Positions 1 through 19,656 of a stretch of DNA of 64,000 nt are shown here, in pieces. The stretch is from positions 3,224 to 67,223 of the forward strand of contig JAUIHS010000023.1 in assembly GCA_030432255.1 (NCBI GenBank), written 5' to 3'. The notes beneath the pieces were generated by a model. That model ran no database searches. It was not told the DNA's origin and worked only from the letters and a program-made list of their open reading frames with translations. Positions within the stretch are counted from its first letter, which is position 1. The number at the start of each line of letters is the position of its first letter. This DNA comes from Phycisphaerae bacterium (GTDB taxonomy: Bacteria > Planctomycetota > Phycisphaerae > Phycisphaerales > UBA1924). Made by a program: the position numbers and the translations under genes.

Positions 1-484
1 CGAAGAAGGGCAGACCTCGCTCGGTGGTTCCGGCATCAAGGACCCTGGCGACGTTCGGGTGATCCATCAGGGCCAGCGCCTGACGCTCCGCTTCGAAGCG
101 GGAGATGACCGCCCGCGAGTCCATCCCCGGTTTGATGATCTTGAGCGCCACGCGTCGCCGAACGGGCTCCGTCTGCTCGGCGAGGAAGACCATGCCGAAG
201 CCACCCTCTCCCAGCATTCGCAGGATTCGGTATCTCCCGACCTGGGCGGGAATGACGCTTGGGTCCGGCGTCACAAGCGTCTCGGACTCACCGTCCTGTG
301 AGTCCAGTTTCTCAAACATGTCCCGAACTGCGTCGCGGACAAGGGCATCGTTGGTGAGTTCCCGGAGTCGCGGTTCGCGCTCGCCGTGAGGGATGTCCCT
401 GATCTCATCCGCAATCCGATGGACGGACGATCTCCTGTCCGCGTCCATCGACTCGCCGCGCACTTCGCCGGAATCCTCAGGCAT
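1..484 (-). CDS. Ser/Thr protein kinase, N-terminal part (gene runs off the window start)
   Basis: This ORF is absent from the ORF track because it is open at the window edge. The reverse complement of 1..320 reads [106 protein letters not shown]. That covers Hanks kinase subdomains I-IV (GxGxxG loop, VALK lysine, helix-C Glu). The frame stays open upstream, with candidate ATGs ending at 484 or 448, so the start is uncertain. Confidence 0.8.
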
Positions 485-614
485 GCGTCCCAGCATACTT
501 GAGCGATCCCTCCGTGACATGACCCGGGTTGGGGCTTCGGCGTCGCCAATGTCAGGAACGCTTCTATGGGTCTCGCAGTGCATAATGAGGAAAATGGACT
601 CCGGAGGTTTCCCT

Positions 615-3600
615 ATGCCACACTCAGGAATTGCCCGTCGCGTCCTTTGGCTGTCGGTTGGATTGTGGGTTGTGATCGCCGCGACCCCCGGGGCAGCCGG
701 ACCGCCGCCGGTCCTCTACGTTGACGCCGACCGGCCGGGCGGTGACGGCAGTTCGTGGAGCGAAGCCTTCACTCACCTGCAGGATGCGCTCTCCGTGGTG
801 GCCGGGCCGGCGGAGATCTGGATCGCCGAAGGGACGTACATGCCCAACGGGAGCCGCGTCAATGACGCCGGCTTTCAGGATGTCAGCGGCGGGGTCTATG
901 ACCGTACAGCGACCTTCCTGGTCGCACCCGGGACCACGATCCGCGGCGGTTTTGCTGGCACCGAGGCCGAGCCTGACGATCGCGCCGGCGACCACCTGAC
1001 GATTCTCTCCGGTGCGATGGACAACGCGAGCCTGTTCAGCCGCCGCTCCTACAACGTCGTGCGTGTGGAATCCGCGGCGATCGGGCCTGTCATCCTGGAA
1101 TCGCTGGTGATCGAAAAGGGCAACTCAGAGAGCCCGGCGAGCGAAGGAGACGGCGGCGGCATCAACGTGCGAACCAACGTGCTGCTTGATCTTCGCGACG
1201 TGATCGTGCAGCAATGCCAGGCGCAGATGCGGGGCGCGGGAGTCTGGTCAGCGGGGCGTGTGATCATCAAGCGAAGTCGGTTTGAGGAGAACGAGTCCGG
1301 GGCCGGTGGTGGCGCGATCAACGTGCGCCGTGACCTGTCGGAGGGGAGCCACCTGGTTGTTCAGTGCGAGTTCATCTCCAACGATGCGGGTCAGAATGGC
1401 GGCGCGATTCTCGTCTCCGGCATTCCCGAGGGCCCCGTGCTCATGCAGGTGCAGAACAGCCTGTTCCATGACTGTAGTGCCATCCAGTTCGGTGGTGCCG
1501 TGAGTGGCAACCCCGGCACGGAGGTTCGGCTGCACAACTGCCTGCTGCTCAATAACGAGGCCGGCGTGGGGGGTGCCGTGAGTGTGACCGGCCCGGACAC
1601 CCGAGGACGAGTGCACAACTGCACATTCTCGAGCAACAACGCCATCATGGGCGGGATGGGCGGCGACCTGCACATCGGGTCGGGCAACGAACTTCGGGTC
1701 TTCAACTCACTGTTTGCCTACGACAGTGCCGAGCCAACGACGCTCGCTGAGATCGGCGGCGGTGGTATTCTCGCATTTCGAGATTGCATGACCGACAATC
1801 CGGCGCCGTTTGCCGGGGGTGCCACTCTCGACGGGACGCCGGAGTACCAGTCCCAACTGAGCTTCATCGACGTCGATGGCGCCGACGATATCAGGGGAAC
1901 TCTGGACGACGACCTTCGCCTGTCTCCGGACTCACCGGCCATTGATCGGGGGCACAACTACTGGTATCTCGATGAGGCGTACAGTGACGAGACGCAGACG
2001 ACCGACAATGGACGCGACTTGCTCGATCTCAACGGGAACGGATCGACCGACCGTGAGTATCTGCCCATCGATCTGCAGCAGGGGCTGCGATTTCTTGATG
2101 TCGACACTGTCCCGGACGCCGTGGTGTGTACCGCCGTGGATGACACCGTACCCGTCGGGGATGGTGTTGACACCGAATTCGGAGGCATCCTGCCGTGTAT
2201 CGACCTGGGATGCTACGAGGTTCAATCGTGCATGGACTGCCCGGGATCTCGACGTTGGCTCAACGTGGCGGGTGGCAACTTCGAGGATGCCTTCAACTGG
2301 TTCCCGGCACTGCCCGGTGATCTGAACATCGCCGCTATCGGCCAGAGCGGCGCCGGTGCATACACGATCCAACTCAACTCGTCGCGGGAGAATCTCGCGC
2401 TGAGTGTTGAAGACAATGACGTCACAATCGACCTGGGCCAGAATATCTACCTGCTCAATGCTGTCGTTGAACCCTCCGTGAATGTCACTGGCACGAGTGT
2501 CCCGGGGCCGCACCTCTTTGTCACCAATGGCATGCTGGCCGGGGAGAGCCTGCTCATCGGGGAACTGCCCAAGTCCCGTGGGTCCGTCACCATCGACGGC
2601 GCTCAGACCCTGCTCGACTTCAATCGGAACCTCTCCGTTGGGGTATTCGGCGAGGCGAGCATGGAGATCTGCGACGGCGCTTCCGTCTTCGCGCTCACCG
2701 TCGGGGTCGGCGAGCAGGCCGGGTCCAGCGGTGATCTCGTTGTTTCCGACGGCTCGGAACTGCTCACAACTGACGTTCAGATCGCCGAGGGATCACTCGC
2801 TGTTCAAGGCACCGGCGTCGTGGATGCGACCGTTCTTCCGTCGGGAGACATCACCGTTCTCTCGGGTGGTGTCGTCCGCGGCGATGGCACACTGGTTGGA
2901 GATGTCATCAACTTCGGAAAGGTCGAAGCCGCACTGGGGGCGTCCGGTATCCGCGGCACAGGTGCGCTGACCGTTCTCGGAGACTACTACCAGCCCGGAG
3001 CAATCCCGCAGATTGATTCGATCGGCGGCATCCTGCAATCCGAGGTCTCCGGTGGCACATCGACCGAAGCAACCAGGCTGGCGGTTCAGGGCGATGCAAC
3101 GGTCGCAGGGGGACTGCTGGTGCGCTTCGCCGAGGGCTCGCCCGCCATCGACCCGGCAGAACTCGACGGACTCACGTTCCTGCAGGCAGACGCCGCGACG
3201 GGGCGGTTTGATGTCGCGCTCATGCCCGCCATCGCGCCGGATGCCGGTGGCAATGTCCGGTTCCTGCGCGTGGTTTATCCGAGTGATCCCGGTGCCGCCC
3301 GCGGCACGGGCGAGATCACGCTGACGGTGGAGACGCTTGGAGTTGGTGGCCCCAGTTTGGGCGTCGAGTCCACTGGTGCGCTGAGCCAGCAGCCGGTTGC
3401 CGCGGCGGTCGGCGATGTCGGCCGGTTCACCCCGGGCGGTCCGGACGGTGCGGAGGACCTGGTCGTGATCTACCCGGACGGCACCGGGATTGTGCTGTAC
3501 AACGTCGGCGGCGCCTTTGATGCTCCGGGGAGTGGAACATCCCAGTTCAGCGTGGGCGCCGGAACTGATCCGACGGATGTCGCCGTCGGAGACGTGAATG

Positions 3601-4667
3601 ACGACTCACTCGCGGATGTTGTGATCACGAATCGTGGGAGCGACAACGTCGCGATCCTTCTGAACGATGGAGACGGCCTCTTTCCATCGTTCTACGGTGT
3701 GGGTGTCGGCACGGCGCCGGTGGCGGTTGCGCTGGGAGACCTCGACGGTGATGGGCGCCCGGAGATCCTGACCGCGAATGAGGAGAGCGACGACCTCGCG
3801 GTGGTCTACAACGACGGTGGGGACGACAGCAGTGAATGGCGGGGCGCGACCTTCCACCCGGTCGGCCAGCGTCCCAGCGATGTCGCCCTGGCGGACTTCG
3901 ACACGGACAAGTTCGACGACCCGATTCTCAGCGTCAGAGGCGACGATCGGATCTCGATCTTTACCAATTCGGGGACCGGCACGCTCGGTGCCCGCGTTGA
4001 TCGCACCGTGGGCGATGGTCCATCGCGCCTGATCGTCGAGGATCTCGACGCGGACGGGCGGTCGGACGTGGTCACCATCAATGAAGGCGGTGATGCAGCG
4101 GGTATCCTGCGATCCAACGGTCCGGGCTTCGGCGACTTCGCTCCCGCGGTCGAACAGCCTTTGGCCGGCACACCGCTGTCGCTCGTTGCGGTGGATCTCG
4201 ACGAGGATGCGGATCGCGATCTTGCGATCGTGGTGGACTTCGAGGGCGTCCGTTCGATCGCCTACTACCGCAACGACTACTTCGGGCCCACGGATGACCT
4301 CATCCTGACTGACATCACCGGGGATCCCGGGCTGCCTGATGTCTCCGGTCCCCAGATCGTTCTGCGCTCCGATGTGGACCTGGATGCGCAGGAGGACCTC
4401 GTGGTGATCAACGACGGGAGCGGGGCACGAAGCGCGCACGCTGCGCGGGGCGCAACGCCGGAGCGGGTACGAGTCTTCCTGCCCCTGGGCTGTCCAGGCG
4501 ACGCCGATGGGAGTGGCAGCGTGGACTTCACCGACCTCAATCTTGTCCTCGCAGGCTGGGGAGGCCCCGGCGACGGGGATGTGTTCCCCGTCCCGGGTGG
4601 CGATGGAGTCATCAATTTCGATGATCTCAATGCGGTCCTCGCTCAGTGGGGAGCGTCCTGCAACTGA
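615..4667 (+). CDS. Giant secreted protein: right-handed beta-helix (PbH1/Pmp-like) repeats, FG-GAP/VCBS-like repeats and a C-terminal dockerin-like module
   Basis: Track ORF 393..4667. I moved the start to ATG 615, which has GGAGG 7 nt upstream and gives the signal peptide [29 protein letters not shown]. The N-terminal third has GGAI/GGAV-type beta-helix repeats. The region from about 3400 to 4300 has repeated D-x-D/N-x-D-G-x-x-D(L/V)V segments (for example [30 protein letters not shown] and [26 protein letters not shown]), which are FG-GAP/VCBS-like. The protein ends [24 protein letters not shown]...[22 protein letters not shown]. Confidence 0.8.
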
Positions 4668-4796
4668 GCAGAAAATGTCCAGATTCCGATCTCTCGCCGG
4701 GCGCGCGCCGCGCGGGCTGCCAGAGGGATGGTGAACAGCCTCCCGCGGCGGCCGGATGGACCGGCCTTCCCGAAGGAGGATCGGAAAGGACATGCC

Positions 4797-6430
4797 ATGC
4801 AGGTCAAGACATCTACTTCATCGTGTTCGACTTCCCGCTTTGACCGGCGCTCGCGTCTGGCGATCGCTTCCCTGCTTGTCATCGCCGGCGCTGCGACGTC
4901 GGCAGTGCAGGGGGCGAACATTTACGTCGACGCCAGCGCCTTCGGCCCGGAGGACGGTTCATTCTTTGACCCGTTCAACACGATTCAGGAGGGCATCGAC
5001 GCGGCTTCACCTGGTGACACGGTCGTCGTCCGAGATGGCGTCTATCAGGGCGCGGGCAACACCAGTCTCCTGCTCCCCTGCAACAATATCACCATTCGCT
5101 CCTCCAATGGATGGGGTTTCACGACCATCGACGGCAGTGCGGGAGGGTCCGGGTTCATCATCAACGGCCCCGGCGTTTCTGCTGGCACATCCCGGATCGA
5201 GGGCTTCCGCTTCGTCAACCTGTTCCATCCCATCGGGGGCGCCGCCATCGACTGTGAGGACTGCACTATCGAGGTGGTTGACTGCCAGTTCGAATCCAAT
5301 TCGGCCCGCTCGTATGGTGGCGCGGCATCGTTCGTGGACTCGGTCGTGGACATGGACGCCTGTGGATTCGAGTCGAATACGACGGATGATGGCGGCGCCG
5401 TCTACTTCAACCGAAGTGACGCGACCGTCGCGAATTGCAGTTTCACAGCAGGCCATGTGGCGGAGGAACTTGGCGGAGCCATGTTCATCACCGGTCAGAG
5501 CGATGTCACCATCACCGACTCCGCCTTTTCCGGAAGTCATGCGGAAGAGGACGGCGGCGAGATCGCTGTTCGAAGTGCCAGCCTGCTGTCCGTCAGCAAC
5601 TCGACCTTCTCTGACAGCAGTGCAACCTGGAACGGCGGGGCGATCCACGCCCGTGCCGCGAGCGTGACCCTGGACCAGGTGAGCTTCAATGCAACAGAAG
5701 CGGAGGATCGGCGCGGCGGTGCTCTGATGGCGGTCGAAGAGACCTGGGTCATCATCTCGAACTCGAACTTTCTCAACTGCTCCTCCTACCGGGGTGGTGG
5801 TGCCATCTTCGCCGACGACAGCACGATCGAAGTCAGTGCCTCGTCCTTTGGTGGCAATGACGCTGGCACTCAGGGCGGTGCGCTCCGTCTGCGCTCTGGG
5901 GCTGCCGGTACGGTCACAAACGTTGACTTTGACGGCAACTCTGCTCAGTGGGATGGCGGCGCCATCACGAGTTCCGATGGATCCACGCTCTCTGTCAGCG
6001 GCAACTCGACATTCACGAGCAATACCGCCGCGACCGATGGCGGGGCCATCTCCAGTACGGATGCGAGTGAACTCACGGTTGCGAACACAACTTTCGCAGA
6101 GAACGTCGCTGAACGGGGCGGTGCCGTGTTCACTGAGAATGCCGCGGCTACGACCCTGGTTGACGGGTCGGAGTTTTACGAGAACATCGCCATGTCCGAC
6201 AACGGGGGCGCGATCAGCAGCGTCTTCGGCCAGCTCGACGTCAGCAACAGTCACTTCAACGACAATGAGGCTCTGTCTGGCTATGGCGGCGGCGTTTCGA
6301 CCAGCAGTGAGACCAGTCTGACCGTGAATGGGTCGACGTTCACTCGCAACAGGGCCCTTTCGGGAGGCGGACTCAGTGCCGAGAACGTCGGAGCCACCAC
6401 ATGGCTCAACGACTGCATCTTCAAGGACGC
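4797..6430 (+). CDS. Secreted polymorphic-membrane-protein/PbH1-like beta-helix repeat protein, 3' end disrupted (nominal ORF runs to 6932)
   Basis: Track ORF 4728..6932. ATG 4797 has GGAAAGGA upstream and gives the signal peptide RLAIASLLVIAGAATSAVQG. More than 15 repeats follow of the form ...F.xN.A.xxGGA(I/L/V/M)..., for example NSARSYGGAASF, TTDDGGAVYF, SSATWNGGAIHA, AATDGGAISS and AERGGAVFT. The repeat rhythm and coding-like composition stop after ...TTWLNDCIFKD at about 6428. Downstream the frame is only the antisense of the neighbouring gene. Confidence 0.6.
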
Positions 6431-8228
6431 CGCCGCTCTGGACCGTCAGGCTGCCGCCGATCACGCCCGTGCCATCGAGCCTCACACCCTCGAACATGAC
6501 GGGCCCGGTGCCGGTGAGCGAGGCGAACTGCCGCGCGGCGTCCTTCAGGCGCAGGCTCCCGTCGGTCACCGTGAGACCGCCCGAGTAGTTCGCGTCGTGC
6601 GCCAGTTCAAGCATTCCGGTTCCGATTTTCTCGATGCTGCCGGGACCGCCGGCCGCGTCAATGATCTGGAAATCGATGGTCGAGGTTCCGGGATCGTCAG
6701 TCAGGACAAGTGCGCTGCCGTTCGCGGAATCGCTGATCTCCACGAGTGGATTGGCGTCGAGGTACACGGTGAGTCTCGGCGTGGTGAGGACGCCGCCGTT
6801 GACGGAGATCGAACTGGAGTCCATGAAGACGTCAATGCCGTCCGATGCGGACACCGACCCGCCATCGGTGATGGACAATCCACCAGTGCCGCCGTACTGC
6901 CCCGAGTGGTAGCCCCCGAGGAAGAGTCTTGATATCCCGAGCGTCGAGCCCGTGCCCTGCACAGTGATCGTCCCGAAGTTGTTCGCCGACAAGCCTGCGA
7001 CGATGGCGTCGGCTACGACGTCACCTCCACTCTCGATCAGGAGCGCGCCGTCAGCGCTGGCGGTCGTGTTGCCCCCGACGACGAGCCACGGCTCCGAGCC
7101 CAGGGTGACATCCAACAGACCTCCATTGGAGACCGTCAGGGTGCAAGGGGAACCGGACCCTCCCAGGTCGAGCCGGCTCGCCAGCGCGTGAGACCCGGAG
7201 CCGGTGATCAGCATCTCAGCGCCATTCACAATCCAGCAACTCCCTTCGTAGACGCCACCGGTGCCGGTGCTCGGCATCTGAACCGTGGCGCCGCCTCGGA
7301 CTTCCACAGCCGTACCCACCCCGGAGATCGTCATCTCCTGCAAGCCGTCGGCTGGCATCGTGAGTGTGGCACCGTCGAGTACGAATCTGCCGCCATATGA
7401 ATCGAACCCGCCGACCGTTGCGCTCCCGGTCAGGGTGTGTGATTGCGATCCCTGGATCTGAATCGTGGACGTCTCGTCCCCCGTGATCGTACCTCGGTAG
7501 GTTGCGTCGAAATCCGCGCCGGCCAGCGTGAGTCGGTTGCTCTCGAGTTCGACTGTCCCGGTGGCGTCGCCCCAGAGCGCACCGATCGTCTCATTGTTGA
7601 GCAGACGAAGCGTTCCGGCCAGTTCGACGCCGATGGCGTCGGTGTCCGAATACGCAGAGCCACCCCCGAGGACAACCTCGCCGTTCTGGACGGCCAGGTC
7701 ACCGCCGACGCTGTTGTTATTGCCCGCAATGATCAGCGTGCCGTCCCCCATCTTCTGCAGAGGGTCCACGTAGAAGTCGTCGCCGGAGGTGTCGAACTCG
7801 CCGATGACCTCGACGGTCATGCCCTCGGCGATGGTCCAGATCGAGTCAGGGCGAACTTCGACATTCGCCGCGATCAGGTGGGTGAGAAACGCGCCGTCCG
7901 AGGCGCACGTGAGGTCGCCGAACAACAGCGATCCGTTGGAGATGACGTACTGCGTGGAGCTCTCGAACTTCACGCTGTCGATGGTCGGTGGAAAGGTGTC
8001 CAGGTTGACCGAGAATCGCGAGGCCGCGCTGCTGAACACAGCCCGGTCGGCGGATCCGGGCATGGCGGACCAGTTCCCCGGGTTGGGCCAGAGGTTGTTG
8101 AACGTGCCGGTCCAGTAGCAGTCCGCCGCGTGGGTCGTGCCGCAGGAGGTGGCGAGCGCCATGGCCATGCAGCAGCGTGTCATCAGGGGTGTCAGTCGAT
8201 GGGCCTGAACTGTTGTCGTCGTCTTCAT
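6420..8228 (-). CDS. Secreted autotransporter-associated beta-strand-repeat-like protein, 3' end disrupted (nominal ORF runs to 5007)
   Basis: Track ORF 5007..8285. ATG 8228 gives MKTTTTVQAHRLTPLMTRCCMAMALATSCGTTHAADCYWTG (signal peptide). It then carries the motif typical of this family, FNNLWPNPGNWS, followed by repeats of the type K(M/I)GxGxLxLxGxNxYxGGLTVxxGxLxL (KMGDGTLIIAGNNNSVGGDLAVQNGEVVLGG; EKIGTGMLELAHDANYSGGLTVTDGSLRL). It is credible only down to ...GGSLTVQSGGVL at about 6423. Beyond that the frame is antisense of the Pmp-like gene. Confidence 0.6.
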
Positions 8229-8435
8229 GTCTGTACCTCGTCTTCCGGGTGGCTGGTGTGTTCTCGCGACAGTCGGATGTGGCATCGCTCCAATGGAGGA
8301 GCGTCACCTCTCCCCTGAAACGCAGGGCGTCGCCGGGCTCCCTGACGAAATGTCAATCCATCTCGAAAAAGTCGGCACAGACTCGTTGGTGTTCCGTTAG
8401 GGGCTGGTCGGCCTGACGTACAATGAGTCGAAAGA

Positions 8436-9026
8436 GTGATGCCCATGCCGCCGAATGACCATCACGATGCGACTGCGCTGCTGAACCGAATGAGCGACGG
8501 AGATTCCGCCGCAGCCAGCGACCTCCTGCCCTTGGTGTACGAGCACCTTCGCGCGGTGGCAGGCAGTTACTTCCGCGGCCAGCCCGCCAATCATTCACTC
8601 CAACCGACTGCGCTGGTGCACGAGGCCTATCTGAAACTGGTCAACTCGCCGAGCAGCGACTGGAACGGGCGGGTGCACTTCTGCGCCGTCGCGGCCACCG
8701 CGATGCGGCAGATCCTGCACGACCGCGCCCGTCGCCGGAAGGCCGCGAAGCGGGGCGGCGGAGACGCACGCCGGCTCCCGCTCGAGCACATCGAGACACC
8801 CACGGGTGGAACCAGAATCGACCTGCTCGCGCTCGACGAAGCGCTGGACAAGCTGACCGAACTGGCGCCGCGCCAGGCCCGCATCATCGAACTGCGCTTC
8901 TTCGGCGGACTGACCATCGAACAGACCACCGAGGTGCTCGGCGTGTCGCACGCAACAGTGGAGAATGACTGGCGCGTGGCGCGGGCGTGGCTCAGCCGGG
9001 AACTGCAGAGCGGAGAGGGCGAGTGA
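8436..9026 (+). CDS. ECF-type RNA polymerase sigma factor (kinase-associated ECF group)
   Basis: 196 aa. LLPLVYEHLRAVAGSYFRGQPANHSLQPTALVHEAYLKLV is a sigma-70 region 2. APRQARIIELRFFGGLTIEQTTEVLGVSHATVENDWRVARAWL is a region 4.2 HTH. The layout matches the ECF family that is typically encoded next to Ser/Thr kinases instead of anti-sigma factors. Confidence 0.9.
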   Translation: MMPMPPNDHHDATALLNRMSDGDSAAASDLLPLVYEHLRAVAGSYFRGQPANHSLQPTALVHEAYLKLVNSPSSDWNGRVHFCAVAATAMRQILHDRARRRKAAKRGGGDARRLPLEHIETPTGGTRIDLLALDEALDKLTELAPRQARIIELRFFGGLTIEQTTEVLGVSHATVENDWRVARAWLSRELQSGEGE

Positions 9027-11425
9027 ACGCCGCGGAGCGGTATCAGAAGGCCGTCGAACTCTTCCACGAGGCCGCCCAACTCCCGACTGAAGCGCGCAGC
9101 GAGTTCCTGCAGCAAAGTTGCGGTGACGATGCGGCACTGCGGGAAGAAGTCGAGTCGCTGCTGGAACATGACGACGCGGAGGGCGATCTCTTCGGTCCGG
9201 GCAAAGGCGTCGAGATGCTCGCCGAGGACCTGTTCGGAGATCAGGCGGACGACCTCACCGTGGCCGGTCCGCTTCCGGGCCGCATCGGACCGTATCGGAT
9301 TCTCCGGCTGATCGGCCGCGGCGGGATGGGGCTCATCTACGAGGCCGAGCAGGACTCCCCGCGCCGGCGAGTTGCGCTCAAGGTTCTCCAGGCCGGTGCG
9401 GTCAACGTATCGATGCTGCATCGTTTTCGGCAGGAGGCTCAGCTTCTCGGCCAACTACAGCATCCCGGCATCGCGCAGGTCTTCGAAGCGAGTGTTGCTG
9501 AGATCAATGGCGCTCGACAGCCATTCTTTGCCATGGAGTTCATCGACGGTCTGCCGCTAGACCAGCACGCCGAGTCTCACGGATTGAACCTCCGGCAGAA
9601 GCTCGAGTTGGTCGCTCGTGTCTGTGATGCGGTGCAGCACGCGCATCAAAAGGGTGTGATCCATCGCGATCTCAAGCCTGCCAACGTTCTCGTCGTGACA
9701 CAGTCGATCGGATCGCAGGCCACGACCGGGAGCGCCCTCACCGTTGATGAGATCGGGTTGCCCAAGGTGCTCGACTTCGGTGTCGCTCGTGTGACGGACG
9801 CAGATGTGCAAGGTGCGACACTGCACACCGAGGTCGGGCAACTCATCGGCACGATCGCATATATGAGCCCCGAGCAACTTCGCGGCGACTCGACCAGTCT
9901 CGACACCCGGTGCGACGTGCACGCGCTGGGTGTCATTGCGTACGAACTGCTCGCGGGCACGCTTCCGCACGATCCCTCAGGACTCTCCGCGGCGGAGGCC
10001 ATCCGTCGGGTGCAGGAGACGGAGCCAACCCGTCTCGGGATCCGCGTGCCAACCCTTCGCGGCGACGTCGAGACCATCGTCGCCAAGGCGCTCGAGAAGG
10101 ATCGCGAACGCCGTTACGGCTCAGCCGCTGAACTCGCCGCGGACATCCGGCGCTTTCTCCAAGACCAGCCCATCGAGGCCCGGCCCGCCAGCCGTCTCTA
10201 CCAACTTCGGAAGTTTTCCAAGCGAAACACCGGGCTGGTTGTCGGGATCGCCGCTGCGCTCCTGGCCTTGTCCATCGGCCTCGTGTTCACGACCATCAGC
10301 GCTCGGCGCGCCCATGAGGCCACGCTTCGCGCGGAGCTGGAGAGCCAGCGCGTGAAGGAGTCAAAGCAGGATCTGGCCTTGCTGTCGGGGTTCCAGGGCG
10401 CGATTCTCAGCCGTGCGGACATGCAGGAGATGGGCAGCCTGATTCTGGGCGAGCTTGACACACTGCTTGATGAGGACCACGACAACGAGTTGCTTCGCGA
10501 TGCGCTTCGTGACGTCAACCCGGCGTCACTTGCCCGGCGGGTCGTTGACGAGAGCATCCTGACGCCCGCATCCCGTGCCGCGATCGAGGAGTTCGCGGAT
10601 CGACCGACCATCGAGGCGGATGTTCGCATGGCATTGAGCGAGTCATACTTCGAGCTTGGCATGCTCGAGCAGAGTCTGCGCGAGGTGGAGGCCGCCCTTG
10701 CACTGCGACGCGAGCATCTGGGAAACGAGCACAGCGATACGATTCACGCGATCGGGATTATCGGCACAGTTCTCAGTGCCATGGAGCGGTATGCGGAAGC
10801 GGAGTTGTGCATCGCGGAGGAACTGCGGCTGCTGCGGGCGACGCTCCCGGAGGATGACGAGAGAGTGCTTCAGGGGCGCGATCGCATGGTGGTGGTCCTG
10901 ACCGGACTGGAGCGGCTGGACGAGGCGATTGAAGCCGCGGAGGCGGTCGTGGCCGACGCCACCCGCGTGTCTCCTCCCGACGATCCCCAACTGCTGCACT
11001 TTCGCCGACATCTCGCCCGACTCTACGGGCGCACCCAGCAATTTGAGAAGGCCCTCACCATGTTCCAGATCCTGCTGGCCGACCACGAGCGCGTGTTCGG
11101 CGAGGATCATGAGCGGACCTTGATCTGTCGCTCCCATGTGGCTGGAACGCTCGCCAGGCTCGGGCGCTTTGCCGAGGCCGAACCGTTGTACGCGACACTC
11201 CAGCGCCAGGCCGAGACACGCTACGGAGAATTCGATCCACGTGCCGTCGGCCTGCTCGGCAGTCTCGCCCGAGTGAGGACAGATGCGGGCTACCGGGAAG
11301 CGGCGCTGGCCACATTCAGGCGATTGCTGGAGAGACAGAGCCAGTTTCTTCCCGATGACCATCCGGCGATCCGTGAAACGGAAGACGCAATCGAGCGATT
11401 GGAATCGACGCTGGATGGCAGATGA
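9023..11425 (+). CDS. Ser/Thr protein kinase with one transmembrane helix and a C-terminal TPR-like domain
   Basis: Track ORF 8987..11425. The likely start is GTG 9023, which overlaps the sigma factor stop as GTGA. Kinase motifs: GRGGMGLIYEA, VALKVL, HRDLKPANVLV, DFGVAR, YMSPEQ. A TM helix follows (GLVVGIAAALLALSIGLVFTTI), then tetratricopeptide-like repeats. Confidence 0.9.
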   Translation: MNAAERYQKAVELFHEAAQLPTEARSEFLQQSCGDDAALREEVESLLEHDDAEGDLFGPGKGVEMLAEDLFGDQADDLTVAGPLPGRIGPYRILRLIGRGGMGLIYEAEQDSPRRRVALKVLQAGAVNVSMLHRFRQEAQLLGQLQHPGIAQVFEASVAEINGARQPFFAMEFIDGLPLDQHAESHGLNLRQKLELVARVCDAVQHAHQKGVIHRDLKPANVLVVTQSIGSQATTGSALTVDEIGLPKVLDFGVARVTDADVQGATLHTEVGQLIGTIAYMSPEQLRGDSTSLDTRCDVHALGVIAYELLAGTLPHDPSGLSAAEAIRRVQETEPTRLGIRVPTLRGDVETIVAKALEKDRERRYGSAAELAADIRRFLQDQPIEARPASRLYQLRKFSKRNTGLVVGIAAALLALSIGLVFTTISARRAHEATLRAELESQRVKESKQDLALLSGFQGAILSRADMQEMGSLILGELDTLLDEDHDNELLRDALRDVNPASLARRVVDESILTPASRAAIEEFADRPTIEADVRMALSESYFELGMLEQSLREVEAALALRREHLGNEHSDTIHAIGIIGTVLSAMERYAEAELCIAEELRLLRATLPEDDERVLQGRDRMVVVLTGLERLDEAIEAAEAVVADATRVSPPDDPQLLHFRRHLARLYGRTQQFEKALTMFQILLADHERVFGEDHERTLICRSHVAGTLARLGRFAEAEPLYATLQRQAETRYGEFDPRAVGLLGSLARVRTDAGYREAALATFRRLLERQSQFLPDDHPAIRETEDAIERLESTLDGR

Positions 11426-11647
11426 AACAGAAGCAAGGCGCGCGTCCGCTGTACGAGGGTCGCCTTGTGAACGAGGGGTGGGGTGAGGATGACTGGGAAG
11501 GGGGGTGGGACCCGGTGATGTCGCCTCAGTTCGTGGCTTCGAAGTCCCACTCACCCCTCCGTAGTATCCTGACTGGCTCATTGCTGGTCGAGATCAGGTG
11601 ATCTCCAGACTCGAGTTTCTCACCCGTCCCGGATCAGTCACACCGGA

Positions 11648-13360
11648 TCACCAGACCTGGCAGACGTCACCCCAATGTTCGAGGAACTCGGTCAGATCTG
11701 AGAAGTCGACGGCGCCGTCGGCATCGATGTCGCCGGGAATGGTGCCCGGCTCACCGAACGTGGCCCAGTTGTCGAGCAGGATATTGAGATCCATGAAGTC
11801 GACTTCGAAGTCGCCGTTCATGTCACCAATGCATCCCTGTGGCGTCGTGAATACGACCACCGCCTGGCTGCCGTCGTCGAATGTGAGCTTCGCCGCGAGT
11901 TCACCGGCATCATTCCATGGGGCGCGATGTCCATCTTCCGGTCCGGCGGTGAGGTAGCGTGTGGTGTAGCTGTCGACGGTGCGGAAGTCGCCGGGAGCGA
12001 CTTCGATGACACTGCCTTCGCGGATCAGCAGCACGGTTCCCTCGTAGGGCGTGGTCGCCCAGAGGCCGGTGTCGTTGTCGACCGTGACTCCGGGCCCGAT
12101 GATCCGCGATGTGAACGCCACCTGCCCGGCATTGTTCAACGCGTTCATCCATTCTGCGCTGCTCAGGTACTTCACACCTGCCCCGACGCCGGCGGGCTGG
12201 TCGCCCTCGCGAACAACGAGTTTGAGATCGCCACCTGCGTCCCGGCGCATCATGGCCGAGTTGTTCCCCGGATTGACTCCGAACCCATGCAGCCGCACGC
12301 TGAAGACGGAATCACTGGCGGTGTTGAGCGGGGCCGCGGCCCCCTCGAACTCGTAGATGTAGATCGACGGATCCCACGTCTGATCAGCATCGTAAAGCAC
12401 GCCATCGAGGTCACCCTGTCCCATGAACAGGCCATCACCCTGGCCGCCCAGCATGGTGACGCGCTGGAGCATGGAGACGTCACCGGCGTTGTTGATGCTG
12501 AGTTCCGGCATGACGGTGTCGACGGTATGGAACCAGTAGCCGGGCGTCGGTGTTGGTGCGCCGGCGATGGCGATGGTCTCTGATCCGCCGGCATCGATGC
12601 GCTGCACACTCCACGCGCTGTCACCGGGAACTGAGAGTCTGTTGGTGATCGCGATCTGGTCATCGCTCAATCGAATGGCATCCGAGATCTGGCCGAATGT
12701 GCTGAAGATCACGTCGGGCACCAGGTCGCCTTCACGAAGGACGCTCGAGAGCGGGCCGAAGTTGTCAGTCCACACACCGGTGTCATTCGCTGCACTGACG
12801 CCGGGTCCATCGACCCATGCGCTCATGGCAACGGAACCCGATTCGTTCAGGGCCATCGAAGGGAAGTCAGACCAGAAGACACCGGGCGCCTCGCCGGGTA
12901 CCTGCGTGCCAACTCGCGCGATGACCTCGTGACCGAAGCCGGAGTTCCTGAGCACGATGGCGCGGGGTGCCGCGACCCCGTCGATGCTGGTCCTGATGAG
13001 CAGGGTGCCTGCATCGTTCATGCGAAAGACGTGTTCCCAGCCGGAGACATCACCAAATGAGGAACCCGGCATGCCCGGTACCGGATCGCCCTCGCGGAGC
13101 ACCAGTGACATCGAGCCTGTACCGAGGAATCCCTCGGTCCAGATACCCGAGTCGTCGATCCCGCCCGTCAGGTGTGCTGAGAAGCTGACCTCACCGGCGC
13201 TGTTGATCGCCGGCGGGCCGAAGTACGTATAAGCCTGGCCCGTCCCGGGGGCGGGGTCACCAGTCATGGCAACCACCCGAACGCCGACGCCGGCACCGGA
13301 CACGGAAGAGACAATCCCCGCCACGCCGGCAAGACAGATCAAATCACGAATAGCAAGCAT
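11648..13360 (-). CDS. Secreted NxxGxxAF-type tandem-repeat protein with C-terminal dockerin-like module
   Basis: 570 aa with an N-terminal signal sequence (MLAIRDLICLAGVAGIVSSVSGAG). Recurrent motifs are INSAGEVSFSA, MNDAGTLLIRT, LNESGSVAMSA, INNAGDVSML and LNNAGQVAFTS, each followed by DxTG(I/L/V)W. The protein ends CIGDMNGDFEVDFMDLNILLDNW...GDIDADGAVDFSDLTEFLEHWGDVCQVW. Confidence 0.85.
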   Translation of the reverse strand: MLAIRDLICLAGVAGIVSSVSGAGVGVRVVAMTGDPAPGTGQAYTYFGPPAINSAGEVSFSAHLTGGIDDSGIWTEGFLGTGSMSLVLREGDPVPGMPGSSFGDVSGWEHVFRMNDAGTLLIRTSIDGVAAPRAIVLRNSGFGHEVIARVGTQVPGEAPGVFWSDFPSMALNESGSVAMSAWVDGPGVSAANDTGVWTDNFGPLSSVLREGDLVPDVIFSTFGQISDAIRLSDDQIAITNRLSVPGDSAWSVQRIDAGGSETIAIAGAPTPTPGYWFHTVDTVMPELSINNAGDVSMLQRVTMLGGQGDGLFMGQGDLDGVLYDADQTWDPSIYIYEFEGAAAPLNTASDSVFSVRLHGFGVNPGNNSAMMRRDAGGDLKLVVREGDQPAGVGAGVKYLSSAEWMNALNNAGQVAFTSRIIGPGVTVDNDTGLWATTPYEGTVLLIREGSVIEVAPGDFRTVDSYTTRYLTAGPEDGHRAPWNDAGELAAKLTFDDGSQAVVVFTTPQGCIGDMNGDFEVDFMDLNILLDNWATFGEPGTIPGDIDADGAVDFSDLTEFLEHWGDVCQVW

Positions 13361-13789
13361 TTCAACGCTCCAGAAGAAGATGAAGAGAAGTCAAAGAGGG
13401 CATCACTGTCGACGCCCGTACCGGCACTCTGCGCCAGCCGCCCGGATCTCTCACCAGTTCCTGAGAAAAAACCCCTGCGCGGGCTTGATGATGCTTCTGT
13501 TGCCGAGAGTCCCACTCGCCTTCGACCAACACGACGCTCGCATGTGGTGCGGAATCGGCTCCCAATCCATCCACGCGCGCCTTGATCTGCCGCGAGGTTG
13601 GATCAGCAGGGGCGGTTCAGCGGGGTCGAGCGGGAAGGGAATCACTGCGACTGCGGGGACGGGTGGATACCGCTGTGGTCTGGAAGGCAGTGCAGAGATC
13701 AGGTCCTCGCCGCGTGGGGCTCGATGTGTCCTTGAGACCGAAGATCCGAGAGTGCGTTTGAAACGGTTCGTCTCGGGGAGTTTTCAAGG

Positions 13790-14349: not shown

Positions 14350-17300
14350 TTATTCGCCGCAGCTCTGGTTCCAGTGTGACAGGACCTCGTTGAGGTCGTT
14401 GAAGTCCACGGCACCGTCTCCACCGGGGTAGGGGAAGACGTCACCGTCGGGACCGGCGGTGCCCCAGTTGCTGAGGACCAGGTTGAGGTCATCGAAGTCG
14501 ACATCAAGGTCGCCATCGGCGTCACCCGGGCACAGCGGCGTCGGGGGCAGAACGGCATAGATGCGGACATCATCGATGTTCCAGCCGGGATACGTGACGG
14601 AGCCGTCCGTGGTGCCCATGCCCCAGCGGAGATACACGGTGGCTTCACCGTCGGCGTCCGCGGAGATGTCGTAGGTCTGGAGCGACCAGCCGTTCTCATT
14701 GATGGCGGAGGTCTGCGTGTGCTCCCAGACGGTCGACCAGTTCACGCCGTCGTTGGAAACCTCGATGTTGGCATGGTCGTAGGTCGCGGACTCGACGCCG
14801 AGCCAGCGCTGGAATTCCAGCGTGGTGTCCGTGAAGTCGGTGCAGTCGAGCACGGTGGTGGTGAGATAGCGGATGGGTGAGAGGTTGTTGGGGTAGTCGC
14901 CGTTGAGGTTGTAACCGTAGACGTTGTTACCGGTGAAGCCGGAAGACGGATCACCGTTGTGCGTGCCACCACCGGTGGGCTGGCCGAAGCCCCAGTCGGC
15001 ATCGGCGCTCCAGCCCGGATCGATGTCCATGGGGAAGTCATAAACGATCTGCGGCCCGCCGACCGCGATGTCGACGGTCGCGACATTCGAGTCCTGGCCG
15101 TCGTTGACCTTGTACTCGAAGCCGTCGTCGCCGACATAGCCGAAGTCCGGCTGGTAGTCGACCATGTCACCCATGCTCGCCAGCGTGTAGGGCACCGAGA
15201 GGATGTCAGTCATCGTGACCGGATCGGTCAACGTGCCGTCGGTCGGGAGCGAGGTGATGATGTAGTCGAGCGTGGGCTCGATGGTCATGCCGACAAGCTG
15301 GATCGAAGAGGTCACCGTGTCGGGGACCGTGACGACGACGTTCGTGGCTTCCGGCGGACATGTCGCGCCGGATGCCGCGATCTTCAGCGTCCAGTTGTTG
15401 AGGGACCCGGTGTCCTGGCCGGCGTTGTCGCTGATGGTCAGTGTCCAGTCGCCCGCCGAGAATTCACTGATGTAGTCCGCGAGCAGGCCGGGGCCGTCCG
15501 GCGGGTTGGTGCCGTCGTCGTAGGTGGTGACGATGTCGTCGGCACTGCCGCCGCTGCGATCGTGCAGCGTGACGCTGGTGCCTTCGGGCGACGTGAGGAT
15601 CACGCGCAGGTCACCGATGTACGTGTGCGTGACGTCCAGTTCCACATCGACGTCGCCGATGCAGTAGGTGTCGGGCACCGTGATGATGCTCGTGATCGTC
15701 GAGTTGTCGTTGATCGCCTGCGGCGTATCCACGGCTGCGTAGGTGTAGCGACCAACATCAAGCGTCACCGGGCGTGACGTGTTGCCGTCGCCGCTGGTCA
15801 GGTTGGTGATGGTCACGGTGCCGTTGACGATGCCGTTGGGAAGCAGGTTTGCGTCGCTTGAGAAGCCGACGGTGACATCGAGGAAGTCACCCGTACCCGT
15901 GAGTGTCGCCATGACCGGACCGGAGCCGCCGTTGAGCGAGATCCAGGAATGGCTCGCGCTGATCTGGACATCCACGGGAGTCGGGCGGTCACTGGTGATG
16001 GTGTAGACCTGCGTCGCCGTGAAGGGTCCACCGACGGGTCCGCCGGACACCAGCCCGTTGGCCGGGCTCGAGGAGACGATCGTCTGACCGATCTCAACCG
16101 TATGCATCAGCACACGCTGACGACCGTTGGTCGTGTCGTCGAAGATGAGCTCGCGAGAATAGACGCCAGCGGGAAGACCCGTCGCCGAGGGATCGACGGA
16201 AATCGTCAGCATCGCCGAACCGCCGGACGCGGCGAGCGTGCCGCCCGCCGAAGAGCCGCCGTTGATCAGGATCGGCCCGCTGCCGGCGCCGAGGCTGACC
16301 GTGTAGTTGATCGCCATGGGTGTGGCGTTGCCGAGCGTGTAGTTGTACGGGTCGTTGGTGAAGGGACCGCCCACCACGCCGATGTGATCGACGTTGCCGG
16401 CGGGAGAGATCTGCATGCCGACGCCGGGGATCGTGTCGAGCGTCATCTGGCCGGTGCCGAGCGGGTCGAGCCAGTCGCTCAACCGCGTGGAGCTGGATCC
16501 GCCGCCGGTCCATGAGAGTTGGAAGCGACCGTACCAATCGCCGCGAAGATCGGTGCAGGAGGCGTAGCCGCCGTGGAGTTGTCCGATGACCTTGTGGTCC
16601 CAGGAGAAGAGGGGCGAGCCGGAGGAGCCGGGTTCGGTGGTACCGTCGTCCCAACTGGAGACCCAGAGGTGGGTGCTGTTGCCGGGAGGCGCTTCGCCGA
16701 GGTAGGTGTCCGGAACGACGGGATCGCTCTCGAAGCTGATGCGCTTCTCGTCACCCTGCGGGTGGTGAATGGCGACGGCGCCGTCGTTGAAGCTCATGTC
16801 GCGGCGATCCCATCCGGCAAAGCCGACTTCCCAGTCGGGATCGGGATCGTCATCGAGTTCCACGAGCGTGAAGTCTGATGAGGAAAAAGAGGCGCGGTGA
16901 ACCGAGCCGGTCTGGAAGTCGGTGAGCACGCCGTCGGGCACGCCGCTGCAGGTTGAGGTTTCGAAGTTCCAGTAGACGACGAGTGAAGCCGCGTTACCGG
17001 TTCCGATGCCGCAGTGGTCGGCGGTCATGAAGTAGGGCGTGAGGTCGGCCGCGGTGTTGTTGACCATGAAGCCGGTGCAGAAGATGCTGCCGCCGGTGGA
17101 GATGGCACCGACCGTGGAGATCTCATCCTGCCAGTCGTCGCCTTCCGGGCAGACCACATCGTTGTTGCAGGATCCCGATCGCTCGACGAGTTCGCCGAAG
17201 CCGCGATAGCCGTAGTTGATCGACGTCAGTTCGAGCTTGAGATTGTCGAGTTGCTTTTCGTGAACGACGACTTCAACGGTGATGTCGTCGGAGAGCACGA

Positions 17301-17775
17301 CGGGTGTCCAGAGTTCGCCGTGCGCATCGTTGTCCATCGGGGTGAAGGGGCGGATGCTGTAGGTGCCGTCGGTGGCGTAGACGAACATCATGCCGCCTTC
17401 GGGCATGTGCCAGGTGGTGAAACCCAGGTTGATGGAGTCCGCTTCTTCAGCGCGGATGCGAAGGCGCCACATCCAGCGATCGGCATCGAGGCGTTCCCAG
17501 GTGCCGTCGTTTTCGGGAATGATGCGAACCTCGTGCGGGATCGCGAAGCGCGTCGGCTCGCCGGCGGCGTCGCGCTCGGCATCCTCACGCTCGATCGCAC
17601 CCATGTCCAGCGGGGCCAGGCGCACGGAGCTGACCTGGTCCAGGGGCAGCACGCCCTTGGTCGACAGGCCGTTGGGCTGAATCAGCCCCTGGCCCGAAGC
17701 AGCCGCTCCGGCCATGAGCACGACAAGCGACGCGGCGAGACCGCGCCGACAGTACGACGATACACCTCTGATCAT
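14350..17775 (-). CDS. Secreted multidomain S1 (lysyl-endopeptidase-like) serine protease with proprotein-convertase P-domain, jelly-roll domain and C-terminal dockerin-like module
   Basis: 1141 aa with a signal peptide. The S1 core shows FCTGFMVNN...YFMTADHCG (His) and TEPGSSGSPLF (Ser). A P-domain-like segment reads YCIGDVDVELDVTHTYIGDLRVILTSPEGTSVTLHDRSGGSADDI...GDWTLTISDNAGQDTGSLNNWTLKI. A MAM/choice-of-anchor-like jelly roll follows (ANIEVSNDGVNWSTVWEH...VYLRWGMG). The protein ends CPGDADGDLDVDFDDLNLVLSNWG...GDGAVDFNDLNEVLSHWNQSCGE. Confidence 0.85.
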   Translation of the reverse strand: MIRGVSSYCRRGLAASLVVLMAGAAASGQGLIQPNGLSTKGVLPLDQVSSVRLAPLDMGAIEREDAERDAAGEPTRFAIPHEVRIIPENDGTWERLDADRWMWRLRIRAEEADSINLGFTTWHMPEGGMMFVYATDGTYSIRPFTPMDNDAHGELWTPVVLSDDITVEVVVHEKQLDNLKLELTSINYGYRGFGELVERSGSCNNDVVCPEGDDWQDEISTVGAISTGGSIFCTGFMVNNTAADLTPYFMTADHCGIGTGNAASLVVYWNFETSTCSGVPDGVLTDFQTGSVHRASFSSSDFTLVELDDDPDPDWEVGFAGWDRRDMSFNDGAVAIHHPQGDEKRISFESDPVVPDTYLGEAPPGNSTHLWVSSWDDGTTEPGSSGSPLFSWDHKVIGQLHGGYASCTDLRGDWYGRFQLSWTGGGSSSTRLSDWLDPLGTGQMTLDTIPGVGMQISPAGNVDHIGVVGGPFTNDPYNYTLGNATPMAINYTVSLGAGSGPILINGGSSAGGTLAASGGSAMLTISVDPSATGLPAGVYSRELIFDDTTNGRQRVLMHTVEIGQTIVSSSPANGLVSGGPVGGPFTATQVYTITSDRPTPVDVQISASHSWISLNGGSGPVMATLTGTGDFLDVTVGFSSDANLLPNGIVNGTVTITNLTSGDGNTSRPVTLDVGRYTYAAVDTPQAINDNSTITSIITVPDTYCIGDVDVELDVTHTYIGDLRVILTSPEGTSVTLHDRSGGSADDIVTTYDDGTNPPDGPGLLADYISEFSAGDWTLTISDNAGQDTGSLNNWTLKIAASGATCPPEATNVVVTVPDTVTSSIQLVGMTIEPTLDYIITSLPTDGTLTDPVTMTDILSVPYTLASMGDMVDYQPDFGYVGDDGFEYKVNDGQDSNVATVDIAVGGPQIVYDFPMDIDPGWSADADWGFGQPTGGGTHNGDPSSGFTGNNVYGYNLNGDYPNNLSPIRYLTTTVLDCTDFTDTTLEFQRWLGVESATYDHANIEVSNDGVNWSTVWEHTQTSAINENGWSLQTYDISADADGEATVYLRWGMGTTDGSVTYPGWNIDDVRIYAVLPPTPLCPGDADGDLDVDFDDLNLVLSNWGTAGPDGDVFPYPGGDGAVDFNDLNEVLSHWNQSCGE

Positions 17776-18110
17776 CAGTGACTTTCCTTCGATTTATTCG
17801 GACCCCATTGCCTCGGGCGTTACTCGCAGGGCAGGCATGCCGGGTTCCGCGCTCTCTATCCACTCACTCGGGACGTGAAGTAAAAATCTACCACCAGCCC
17901 GGCTTCCCGGCAACGAAAAAGGGAGGCCCAGCGATGCTGGACGTGCGGCCTGGGAGGCCTGTGAGGAGGGGCTGGCCAGGTCAGGTATCGGCCGCGAGTG
18001 CCTTCCGACCTGCACCGGGGCTTTGGCGCTGGATCGGTGGGCCGACCTGATCTAGAGTGAAGCCTGTGCGTGGGGGAGGTTCGGTCCATCATCGCGAGAG
18101 GAGAGATTCC

Positions 18111-19490
18111 ATGCAGTTGTGTGTGATTGGTATGAGTCTGGTAACTGCGGGGACTTCCCTGGCAGGTCTGCCCACCTACGAGTTCGAGTTGCAGGCCCGG
18201 ACGAACTTCTCGGTGAACCCGGGCAGCTCATGGAACATCCCGGCGAACCACTTCTTCAGCGGTGAAGACATCCAGCTCAATGACAGCCGCCACATCTCCT
18301 TTCATGTCAGCGTGACGCCGAGCGATCAGCCCAAAGTGTGGTTCGGTGACGCCGCCACCGGCGGCATTGTCTACACGGCCGCCGTGGATGCCTTCCTCAG
18401 CGAGACCTCGCTGAACAACAATGATCGCGTGATCTGGGATGAGTCATTCGTCACGACTGAGGGCATCTACTACTACGACGACATGACGTCGGGGAGTGGA
18501 TTCCTGACCAACCGCCCCTTCGGCACGACGACGTGGACGGCTGCGGTCGTGAACGATGCGAACCAGGTCGGCTTCCGGGCTGGTTTCAGCTTCAATGGTG
18601 ACGCGTACATTTCATGGGATCCGACGGCGCCGACCAGTCATGCGGAGCATGTGGTCGAGACGGGCCTCGACCCGGGCAGCCCGTGGGCCTTCCTGTTCAC
18701 GCCCGACTTCAACAACAATCGGCAGATCGCCGGCAAGGGGCGCATCGGCAGCACTTCCGGCAGCGCCCCTGACGAGATCCGCATCTGGAACTCGGATGGC
18801 ACATCGATCCTCATCGCCGAGGATGACGACGGCAACCCCGCCTCGCAGTTCACCGGCTTCGACAACAGCGTCGCGCTGAACGACAACGGTTGGGTCGCCT
18901 TCGTCGCCAACCTCGCGGGGAATGTTCGCGGCGTCTTCGCGTCTGACGGCACGACGACGGTGACGATCGCAACCGAAGCGCATCCCGATGTCTCGGACAT
19001 CGAGTTCTTCGCCCCGGACATGAACAACGATGGCCTGGTGGTCTTCCGGGCCTTCAACGCATCCGGCCAGCGCGCCATCTGGGTCGGCGACGGCACGGAC
19101 CTCATGCCGCTCGTGACCGAGCACGACATCCTGCCCACCGACCTCGGTGACGGTCGCGTCGATCAGAACACCACGAGCAGTCCTGTCTTCGGGGGTGCGC
19201 CGTGTGTCAATAACAATGGTGACGTGGCGTTCTACTGCGGTCTGACACCGCCGGATGATGACCAGATCGAGTGGGGCTCCGGCGTGTATGTTGCGAAGGT
19301 GATTCCGGCTGTCTGTCCGGGTGACGCCACGGGCGACCTGATGGTGAACTTCGACGATCTCAACGAAGTGCTCACCAACTGGGGCACCGGCGGTCCCGAC
19401 GGCGACGTGTTCCCGGAAGGTGGCGACGGGATGGTGAACTTCGATGACCTCAACGAAGTGCTCACCAACTGGAACACCGACTGCAACTGA
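18111..19490 (+). CDS. Secreted NxxGxxAF-type tandem-repeat protein with C-terminal dockerin-like module (paralogue 1 of a tandem trio)
   Basis: Track ORF 18057..19490. ATG 18111 is preceded by GAGAGGAGAG and gives MQLCVIGMSLVTAGTSLAG. Repeats: VNDANQVGFRA, LNDNGWVAFVA, MNNDGLVVFRA, VNNNGDVAFYC. The protein ends CPGDATGDLMVNFDDLNEVLTNWG...GDGMVNFDDLNEVLTNWNTDCN. Confidence 0.85.
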   Translation: MQLCVIGMSLVTAGTSLAGLPTYEFELQARTNFSVNPGSSWNIPANHFFSGEDIQLNDSRHISFHVSVTPSDQPKVWFGDAATGGIVYTAAVDAFLSETSLNNNDRVIWDESFVTTEGIYYYDDMTSGSGFLTNRPFGTTTWTAAVVNDANQVGFRAGFSFNGDAYISWDPTAPTSHAEHVVETGLDPGSPWAFLFTPDFNNNRQIAGKGRIGSTSGSAPDEIRIWNSDGTSILIAEDDDGNPASQFTGFDNSVALNDNGWVAFVANLAGNVRGVFASDGTTTVTIATEAHPDVSDIEFFAPDMNNDGLVVFRAFNASGQRAIWVGDGTDLMPLVTEHDILPTDLGDGRVDQNTTSSPVFGGAPCVNNNGDVAFYCGLTPPDDDQIEWGSGVYVAKVIPAVCPGDATGDLMVNFDDLNEVLTNWGTGGPDGDVFPEGGDGMVNFDDLNEVLTNWNTDCN

Positions 19491-19656
19491 CCTTCGGTCG
19501 AACGTCCGATGATCTGATCGCGGCCGAGTACTGAGCGGTTACCGGGCCTCCGGCGGCCCGCTATCTGTCGCATTGCCGGCATGCTGCTTGGATCGGTCGG
19601 AACGCGGTTTAGAATGGGAAGCGTACAGGCTTCGTTCATTCACTCGGAGAAGAGTT

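Follow-up and report, generated by a model that had tools for sequence, protein, structure and literature searches.

A probable deletion joining the 5′ parts of two surface-protein genes tail to tail in an uncultured Phycisphaerales-like planctomycete

Introduction

Shadow open reading frames (ORFs) in the codon-aligned antisense of genes rich in G and C at the third codon position (GC3-rich genes) are a known annotation artefact. In this register an antisense stop requires a TTA, CTA or TCA codon in the sense strand. Examples of shadow ORFs were reportedly described by Merino et al. in 1994 and by Mir et al. in 2012. Deletions associated with microhomology are known to create pseudogenes in bacterial genomes. 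For freshwater Phycisphaerae, a cohesin–dockerin “planctosome” has been proposed (PMC6461901). The locus described here lies in a 64,000-nucleotide stretch of DNA (the window) from a Phycisphaerae bacterium, positions 3,224 to 67,223 of contig JAUIHS010000023.1 in assembly GCA_030432255.1. Within the window, a Pmp-repeat gene on the plus strand meets a PATR (autotransporter-associated beta-strand repeat) gene on the minus strand at 6428|6429, with no stop codon and no spacer between them.

Both genes are truncated at this single point. Biologically, the locus is ordinary: it is a truncating structural lesion in two surface-protein genes, disguised by shadow ORFs. It probably arose by a true deletion from the chromosome, in the population sampled of an uncultured Phycisphaerales-like planctomycete, a reading in which confidence is fairly good.

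Truncation of the two genes at a single junction

In the ORF map, the plus-strand ORF extends from 4728 to 6932 and the minus-strand ORF from 8285 to 5007, with a mutual overlap of 1,926 nt; the two frames are exactly codon-aligned. Composition locates the change of coding strand. The codon position with high GC moves from plus position 3 to plus position 1 (equivalent to minus position 3) between segments 6303–6452 and 6453–6602, a phase shift that is localised to about 6400–6450. Scored by codon-usage log-odds, with six confident genes of the window as the training set, the coding signal switches strand in segment 6357–6476. No terminator-like site was found in 4500–8600, and an Rfam scan of 4400–8700 gave no family near threshold. 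The tail-to-tail collision without stop, spacer or C-terminal module that the initial annotation had described is therefore upheld by the ORFs, the GC phase, the codon log-odds and the terminator scan together.

The 5′ remnant of the Pmp-repeat gene, which encodes a parallel-beta-helix surface protein with a signal peptide, occupies 4797..6428 on the plus strand (544 codons, 1,632 nt), as delimited by Pfam and TIGR matches and by an intact relative, P0007. Its true start is the ATG at 4797, since P0007 begins at the same MQVKTSTS with the same signal peptide. The plus ORF scores 56.8 bits against Pfam PF02415 (Chlam_PMP; cut-off 20.6) and 57.4 bits against TIGR01376 (cut-off 15), and all of these matches lie before the junction, which establishes the protein as a member of the Pmp-repeat family. 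More than 1,000 homologues, 900–1,200 residues long, are annotated as “predicted outer membrane repeat protein” or as beta-helix repeat proteins. Named relatives come from metagenome-assembled genomes of Phycisphaerales and other Planctomycetes.

The intact relative fixes the 3′ limit of the remnant. A Logan contig from run SRR24874942 (L001, 4,611 nt) is 95.9% identical to the window over 2,424 nt (window 4014–6436), and in the base-by-base alignment the final matching run ends at 6428 (...CATCTTCAAGGAC), where the intact allele reads ...TTCAAGGACAACGCTGCAATCGG... The Pmp protein of L001 is P0007 (1,034 residues). Its residues 1–544 match the remnant at 96%, up to ...CIFKD, and are followed by 490 more residues containing further Pmp repeats and a dockerin-like end (...GDVDGDGDVDFADLNDLL...GDLNGDGLVNFEDLNILLGTWGEGI). 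Sixty-four Pmp homologues align up to where the remnant ends, and they extend past that point by a median of 381 residues. In L001 the stop codon of the Pmp gene is followed by a terminator with a 10-bp stem (L001 3919–3943), and then by another plus-strand gene.

That downstream gene (L001 4076–4609) encodes a signal-peptide protein with no Pfam or NCBIfam match and is not represented in the window; if the two genomes had the same gene order, the deletion would have taken this gene too.

The 5′ remnant of the PATR gene, likewise with a signal peptide, occupies 6429..8228 on the minus strand (600 codons, 1,800 nt). Its true start is the ATG at 8228; the homologue P0002 and the Logan gene call begin with MKTTTT/MKATTA, and the signal peptide is as in P0002. 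Matches of the minus ORF to Pfam PF12951 (PATR; 29.9 bits against a threshold of 27) and TIGR02601 (24.6 against 19.85) lie upstream of the junction and place the protein among those with PATR repeats. An exhaustive HMMER search of 1.84 billion representatives yielded five collinear homologues: P0002 (55% identical), P0194 (50%), P0195 (48%), P0196 (45%) and P0197 (37%). All five align to query residue 597–600, where the remnant ends, and then carry on: for 75 residues in P0196, which may be a fragment, for 421 in P0002, which is cut by the contig end, and for 720–850 in P0194, P0195 and P0197. Their shared continuation, (E/A/S/K)PS.E.G.GIG.I.CG..., is missing from the window copy. Beyond it, P0002 carries LVIVD repeats (PF08309) and is cut within GDMDSDGVTD (L002 3400–3446), which resembles the first loop of a dockerin-like module; P0194 and P0197, both read to the end, have dockerin-like C-terminal modules. 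In both families, collinear homologues thus continue well beyond the remnant. The residues gone from the Pmp protein include its dockerin-like C-terminus, and those gone from the PATR protein would include such a module if it ended like P0194 and P0197.

In L002, the contig of the 54% relative that carries P0002, another gene in the same orientation ends in a dockerin-like tail ahead of the PATR homologue (L002 1–150).

The junction zone spans 6420..6436 and has no strand of its own. Its bases AAGGAC (6423–6428) form credible codons in both genes. The initial annotation had already given these six bases as the last credible codons of each frame, and the homologues agree: DNA identity with L001 ends at 6428, and collinearity of the PATR protein ends at ...GGVL(E). 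Taken a codon further, TTC AAG GAC (6420–6428) reads F K D in Pmp, as it does in L001, and its complement, GTC CTT GAA, reads V L E in PATR, comparable to VLE in P0194 and to (A/V)L in P0002 and P0196. A microhomology of 6–9 nt at the break (TTCAAGGAC, 6420–6428) is plausible on this basis, judged on the PATR side from homologues in place of a close intact allele.

Open antisense frames beyond the junction

Past the junction, each frame reads only the antisense of the other gene. The read-through tail of the plus ORF (6429..6932, plus strand) contains 167 codons and a stop at 6930–6932 and lies in the codon-aligned antisense of PATR; that of the minus ORF (5007..6428, minus strand) contains 473 codons and a stop at 5009–5007 and lies in the codon-aligned antisense of the Pmp remnant. 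Both tails are non-coding. Across 5007–6428 the codon log-odds are about 0 in the minus frame and 0.3–0.6 in the plus frame, and the ratio of nonsynonymous to synonymous substitution rates (dN/dS) against L001 is 2.2 in the minus frame and 0.16 in the plus frame. In the plus tail, both the GC3 phase and the codon log-odds are wrong for its frame. Homologues of the plus ORF do not extend past the junction beyond alignment noise, covering about 77% of that ORF; no homologue covers the tail of the minus ORF, where matches span 56%. The sequence after the break in each frame therefore carries neither a coding signature nor conservation, and the earlier description of the tails as antisense of the other gene, with stops at 6932 and 5007, is confirmed.

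The read-throughs of 167 and 473 codons are open because the join sits in the codon-aligned antisense register, in which stops are rare. TTA, CTA or TCA accounts for 3 of the 544 sense codons of the Pmp remnant and 3 of the 600 of the PATR remnant, and the first stop of the plus tail falls on a TCA sense codon of PATR. The other two registers would have ended the read-through after 22 or 52 codons on the plus strand and after 1 or 48 on the minus strand. These three codons occur here about once per 100–190 codons, as compared with one antisense stop per 20–60 codons in the other registers, and in five control genes the codon-aligned register had 2–6 times fewer antisense stops than the others. 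The codon register of the join is a one-in-three accident.

Such frames are common in the window. Six other long shadow ORFs inside real genes of the window (255–844 residues) were checked, at 3606–4793 (minus), 28323–30857 (plus), 14959–15777 (plus), 17014–17781 (plus), 10643–11581 (minus) and 7443–8318 (plus), and all six lie in the codon-aligned antisense register. This agrees with the initial annotation, which had attributed the missing stops to the register. Any ORF list for this genome will accordingly be heavily contaminated by shadow ORFs.

A real lesion or an assembly artefact

The join is reproduced in a second assembly. Logan contig ERR3428548_689 (13,955 nt, recorded in 2 samples), reached via P0127, the second member of the protein cluster of P0001, aligns to window 1–13732 with 0 mismatches and 0 gaps, straight through the junction. 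The other reading of such a join is that it is a chimera of assembly or of the library, for example from amplification, and that both genes are intact in the real genome. The source is indeed a metagenome-derived NCBI contig (77,919 nt), the join is carried by one population only, the Logan contig is base-identical to the window and may stem from the same reads, and an abrupt join at which no more than 9 nt are shared looks like a chimera. Against this stand two different assemblers, the second of them working run by run, that followed the same unbroken and unbranched path, the record of the contig in 2 samples, and the shortness of the shared sequence. A stretch of 9 nt or less is too short for a mis-join in a de Bruijn graph, which means that several reads must contain the join. 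Composition is also continuous: positions 1–6428 are indistinguishable from other 6.4-kb blocks (tetranucleotide r 0.975, GC 0.633).

A competing intact allele was sought as well. If such an allele were present at comparable depth, the assembly path should branch at the junction, and the 3′ half of Pmp should have been assembled and called. Neither this 3′ half, nor that of PATR, nor the L001 gene downstream of Pmp occurs in the 64-kb window. These three parts were concatenated into one query, Pmp first, for a search of a 5.8-billion-protein collection that includes the Logan calls from ERR3428548. The control P0007 was recovered, so the Pmp part of the query worked, and matches were returned to this first part only; apart from P0007, the Pmp 3′ half had no match above 45% identity in the collection, and the 90% cluster of P0007 has a single member. 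The protein collection thus shows no rival intact Pmp 3′ end derived from this population.

The lesion is very probably real rather than an artefact, and a chimera is unlikely. The initial annotation had left the choice between a deletion and a chimeric join, and either would have produced the observed structure; the identical join made by a second assembler over 13.7 kb favours the real lesion.

Deletion and other rearrangements

If the ancestral genes were convergent, one deletion gives exactly the observed structure. Such a deletion would have joined the 5′ 1,632 nt of the Pmp-repeat gene to the 5′ 1,800 nt of the convergent PATR gene. It would have removed 490 Pmp codons and at least 421 PATR codons (720–850 if the three longest homologues are the guide), together with the Pmp terminator, both stop codons and all DNA that separated the two genes. 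The 6–9 nt of microhomology may have served in the break, and the join would have fallen by chance in the codon-aligned antisense register, leaving each truncated frame open across the antisense of its partner. Because at least one further gene lies after Pmp in the 96% relative, the deleted DNA would amount to more than about 3.4 kb and could be much longer.

An inversion or translocation would also account for a real junction. In that case the junction would be one of two, and the 3′ halves would survive elsewhere, joined head to head. In L001 a plus-strand gene, and no convergent PATR gene, comes after Pmp. Pmp and PATR may accordingly never have adjoined, and the window represents 64 kb of one contig only. 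The search results speak the other way: the window contains no reciprocal junction and no orphan 3′ halves, and the protein collection holds no Pmp 3′-half fragment from this sample at 50% identity or above, the cluster of P0007 having its one member only. Inverted repeats are lacking at the junction, and no recombinase or insertion sequence (IS) genes were seen among the neighbours examined. An inversion or translocation is therefore improbable, and a deletion remains the preferred explanation. Nor did the junction and the neighbouring genes examined reveal the combination of inverted-repeat sites and a nearby recombinase that marks an invertible or shufflon-like system.

Of the inverted repeats that touch the junction, the best has 23 nt at 74% complementarity and is built of GGC/GCC runs. 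Since matches at the junction consisted only of such runs, they were dismissed as chance.

Several points weigh against a deletion, or against a real lesion altogether. The gene that follows Pmp in L001 lies on the plus strand and is not PATR, so that the former adjacency of the two genes, and with it the size of the deletion, is only conjectural. In the concatenated search, the control P0002 (419 residues in the query) was not returned, which makes the PATR and downstream-gene parts uninformative, and failure to find a Pmp 3′ half in a protein collection is no proof of its absence from the genome. The join is supported by two assemblies only, and these may share sequencing data, given the base-identical contig and the possibility that the “2 samples” are related runs.

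Wider searches for the ancestral arrangement gave little. Neither the ancestral locus nor a close intact PATR allele appeared in scans of genome contigs (by protein and by alignment) or of metagenome contigs (by protein and by a 26-nt pattern left of the junction). Exact look-ups for other contexts of the ECF sigma factor and FG-GAP protein that neighbour the two genes gave only ERR3428548_689.

In the assembly GCA_020427755.1, a 48–54% relative, the gene after the Pmp homologue encodes a Ser/Thr kinase with only 33% identity to the kinase of the window. Synteny with this assembly was considered as an ancestral map and set aside as uninformative, as gene order is not conserved at that distance.

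Age and consequences of the event

Both remnants are free of frameshifts and internal stops. The Pmp remnant has a dN/dS of 0.16 against L001, and the adjacent FG-GAP gene 0.08. The event appears to be recent, because the remnants are intact and the Pmp value, compared with that of its neighbour, leaves room for little unconstrained divergence. Both remnants are probably recent pseudogenes. Their products, if made, would be secreted beta-helix stumps with junk tails, lacking the dockerin-like C-terminal module. As no terminator separates the genes, transcription from their two promoters would run head-on, each transcript into the other gene.

The upstream regions seem to have been spared. The Pmp upstream/intergenic region (4668..4796, plus strand, 129 nt) differs from L001 by 0 substitutions and 1 single-base indel, and the genes flanking it have synonymous divergence (dS) of 0.10–0.13 against L001. 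Such conservation is suggestive of a promoter or leader under strong constraint; in 4668–4796 no Rfam family reaches threshold. On the PATR side, the divergent upstream region shared with the ECF sigma factor gene (8445–9026) occupies 8229..8444 according to the ORF map and the Logan calls, and has no strand of its own. L002 270–400 aligns with window 8354–8228, which shows partial conservation of the region in the 54% relative.

The preservation of frames, signal peptides and upstream regions, together with the missing terminator, is what a functional arrangement would also offer: the antisense-born tails might be translated, the pair might act as a mutual antisense or transcriptional-interference switch, or the structure might reflect programmed surface variation. 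Such a function is highly unlikely. The tails carry no coding signature, the minus tail frame has a dN/dS of 2.2, neither tail is covered by any homologue, and open codon-aligned antisense frames are the rule in the window, as all six shadow ORFs tested illustrate. In addition, long conserved 3′ portions are present in all relatives and missing here, and no invertase or repeat machinery was seen at the junction or among the neighbouring genes examined. The more specific possibility of a real lesion with expression of the fused frames, either as a mutual-antisense off state or through a translated tail of 167 or 473 codons, carries a very slight probability. In the first case the terminator-less pair would silence itself, putting two surface proteins into a heritable off state; in the second, the translated tail would be an observable first step towards a new C-terminal domain born from antisense sequence. 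Under the preferred reading, deletion followed by loss of function, two members of a large set of dockerin-tailed surface proteins would recently have disappeared from one population, in keeping with the turnover to be expected of such genes.

Consequences for annotation

The lesion has already entered public data in disguised form. The public calls, NCBI P0001 (1,053 residues) and Logan P0127 (1,073 residues), both take the whole chimeric minus ORF, and the Logan gene lists contain nothing else in its interval. A search with the plus ORF returned no 100% self match, which implies that neither assembly’s gene calls include the Pmp remnant. The mis-annotation predicted for these 3.4 kb has therefore occurred, the omission of the Pmp remnant being implied by that search. 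Gene callers accept one fused frame as a protein of 1,053/1,073 residues because it has a real start and a real signal peptide, and a chimeric “protein”, 44% of which is antisense junk, now sits in public protein collections. The locus clearly illustrates how, in GC3-rich genomes, gene callers miss truncations that are masked by open frames in the codon-aligned antisense; a check of GC3 phase or of homologue coverage flags such truncations at once.

The NCBI call P0001 starts at 8168, 20 codons downstream of the start at 8228 that homologues and the Logan call support, so that its signal peptide is clipped.

Genomic neighbourhood and dockerin-like modules

The surroundings are those of an ordinary chromosome. 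They comprise an FG-GAP protein, an ECF sigma factor, a Ser/Thr kinase-TPR protein and four DUF7453 paralogues, as well as proteases, sugar-nucleotide enzymes and glycoside hydrolases. No mobile-element genes were found among the window ORFs scanned. The ECF sigma factor gene and the Ser/Thr kinase-TPR gene (9023–11425) overlap by 4 nt (GTGA) and are probably translationally coupled. In L005, a 48% relative, a kinase-TPR gene directly follows the Pmp homologue; at 33% identity it is likely a paralogue of the window gene.

Eleven dockerin-like C-termini were counted and located in the window, ending near 4652, 11666, 14381, 19472, 21393, 23232, 27030, 35677, 40481, 41442 and 50516. None of them belongs to either colliding ORF, which matches the count of eleven made in the initial annotation. 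The DUF7453 paralogues lie at 11648–13360 (minus), 18057–19490, 19573–21408 and 21418–23247, three of them in tandem, and each ends in a dockerin-like double Ca-loop module. The module is shared by diverse families, including FG-GAP, a trypsin/P-domain protease, a subtilase, GH16-CBM6, a giant protein of 2,178 residues and others.

Comparison with known systems

The plus-strand gene shares the GGA(I/L/V)-FxxN repeats of Chlamydia-type Pmp proteins with a right-handed parallel beta-helix (PF02415, TIGR01376, PF13229). In contrast to chlamydial Pmp proteins, its intact relative P0007 ends in a dockerin-like double EF-hand module and not in an autotransporter beta-barrel; compared with that intact form, the window copy keeps only the first 544 of 1,034 residues. 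The minus-strand gene shares the repeats of PATR proteins (PF12951, TIGR02601, LVIVD PF08309) and is collinear over 600 residues with P0002, P0194, P0195 and P0197, but the window copy stops at the junction, without the ...PS.E.G.GIG... segment. Unlike autotransporters, P0002 shows no beta-barrel translocator, and Pfam scans of the window ORFs, P0007 and P0002 revealed no type V autotransporter beta-domain.

A literature search on run ERR3428548 and on shadow ORFs returned nothing usable. Relative to ordinary shadow ORFs, the antisense frames at this locus differ in that they are fused in phase to real 5′ remnants with real starts and signal peptides. The abrupt join inside two coding sequences, with up to 9 nt readable in both parents, and the loss of both 3′ ends and the intervening DNA resemble microhomology-associated deletions, although here the microhomology and the deleted interval are putative, reconstructed from relatives of the two genes.

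A further parallel is the proposed planctosome. Many secreted proteins of the window, as well as intact orthologues of both colliding genes, have two Ca-binding loops of dockerin-like type at their C-termini. The likeness is partial: the C-terminus of P0007 aligns with positions 1–52 of 57 in Pfam PF00404 (Dockerin_1) at 19.6 bits, below the threshold of 22.9, EF-hand models score similarly, and no match to an NCBIfam “GC-type dockerin” model appeared at E ≤ 0.01. From the two colliding genes the module has been lost.

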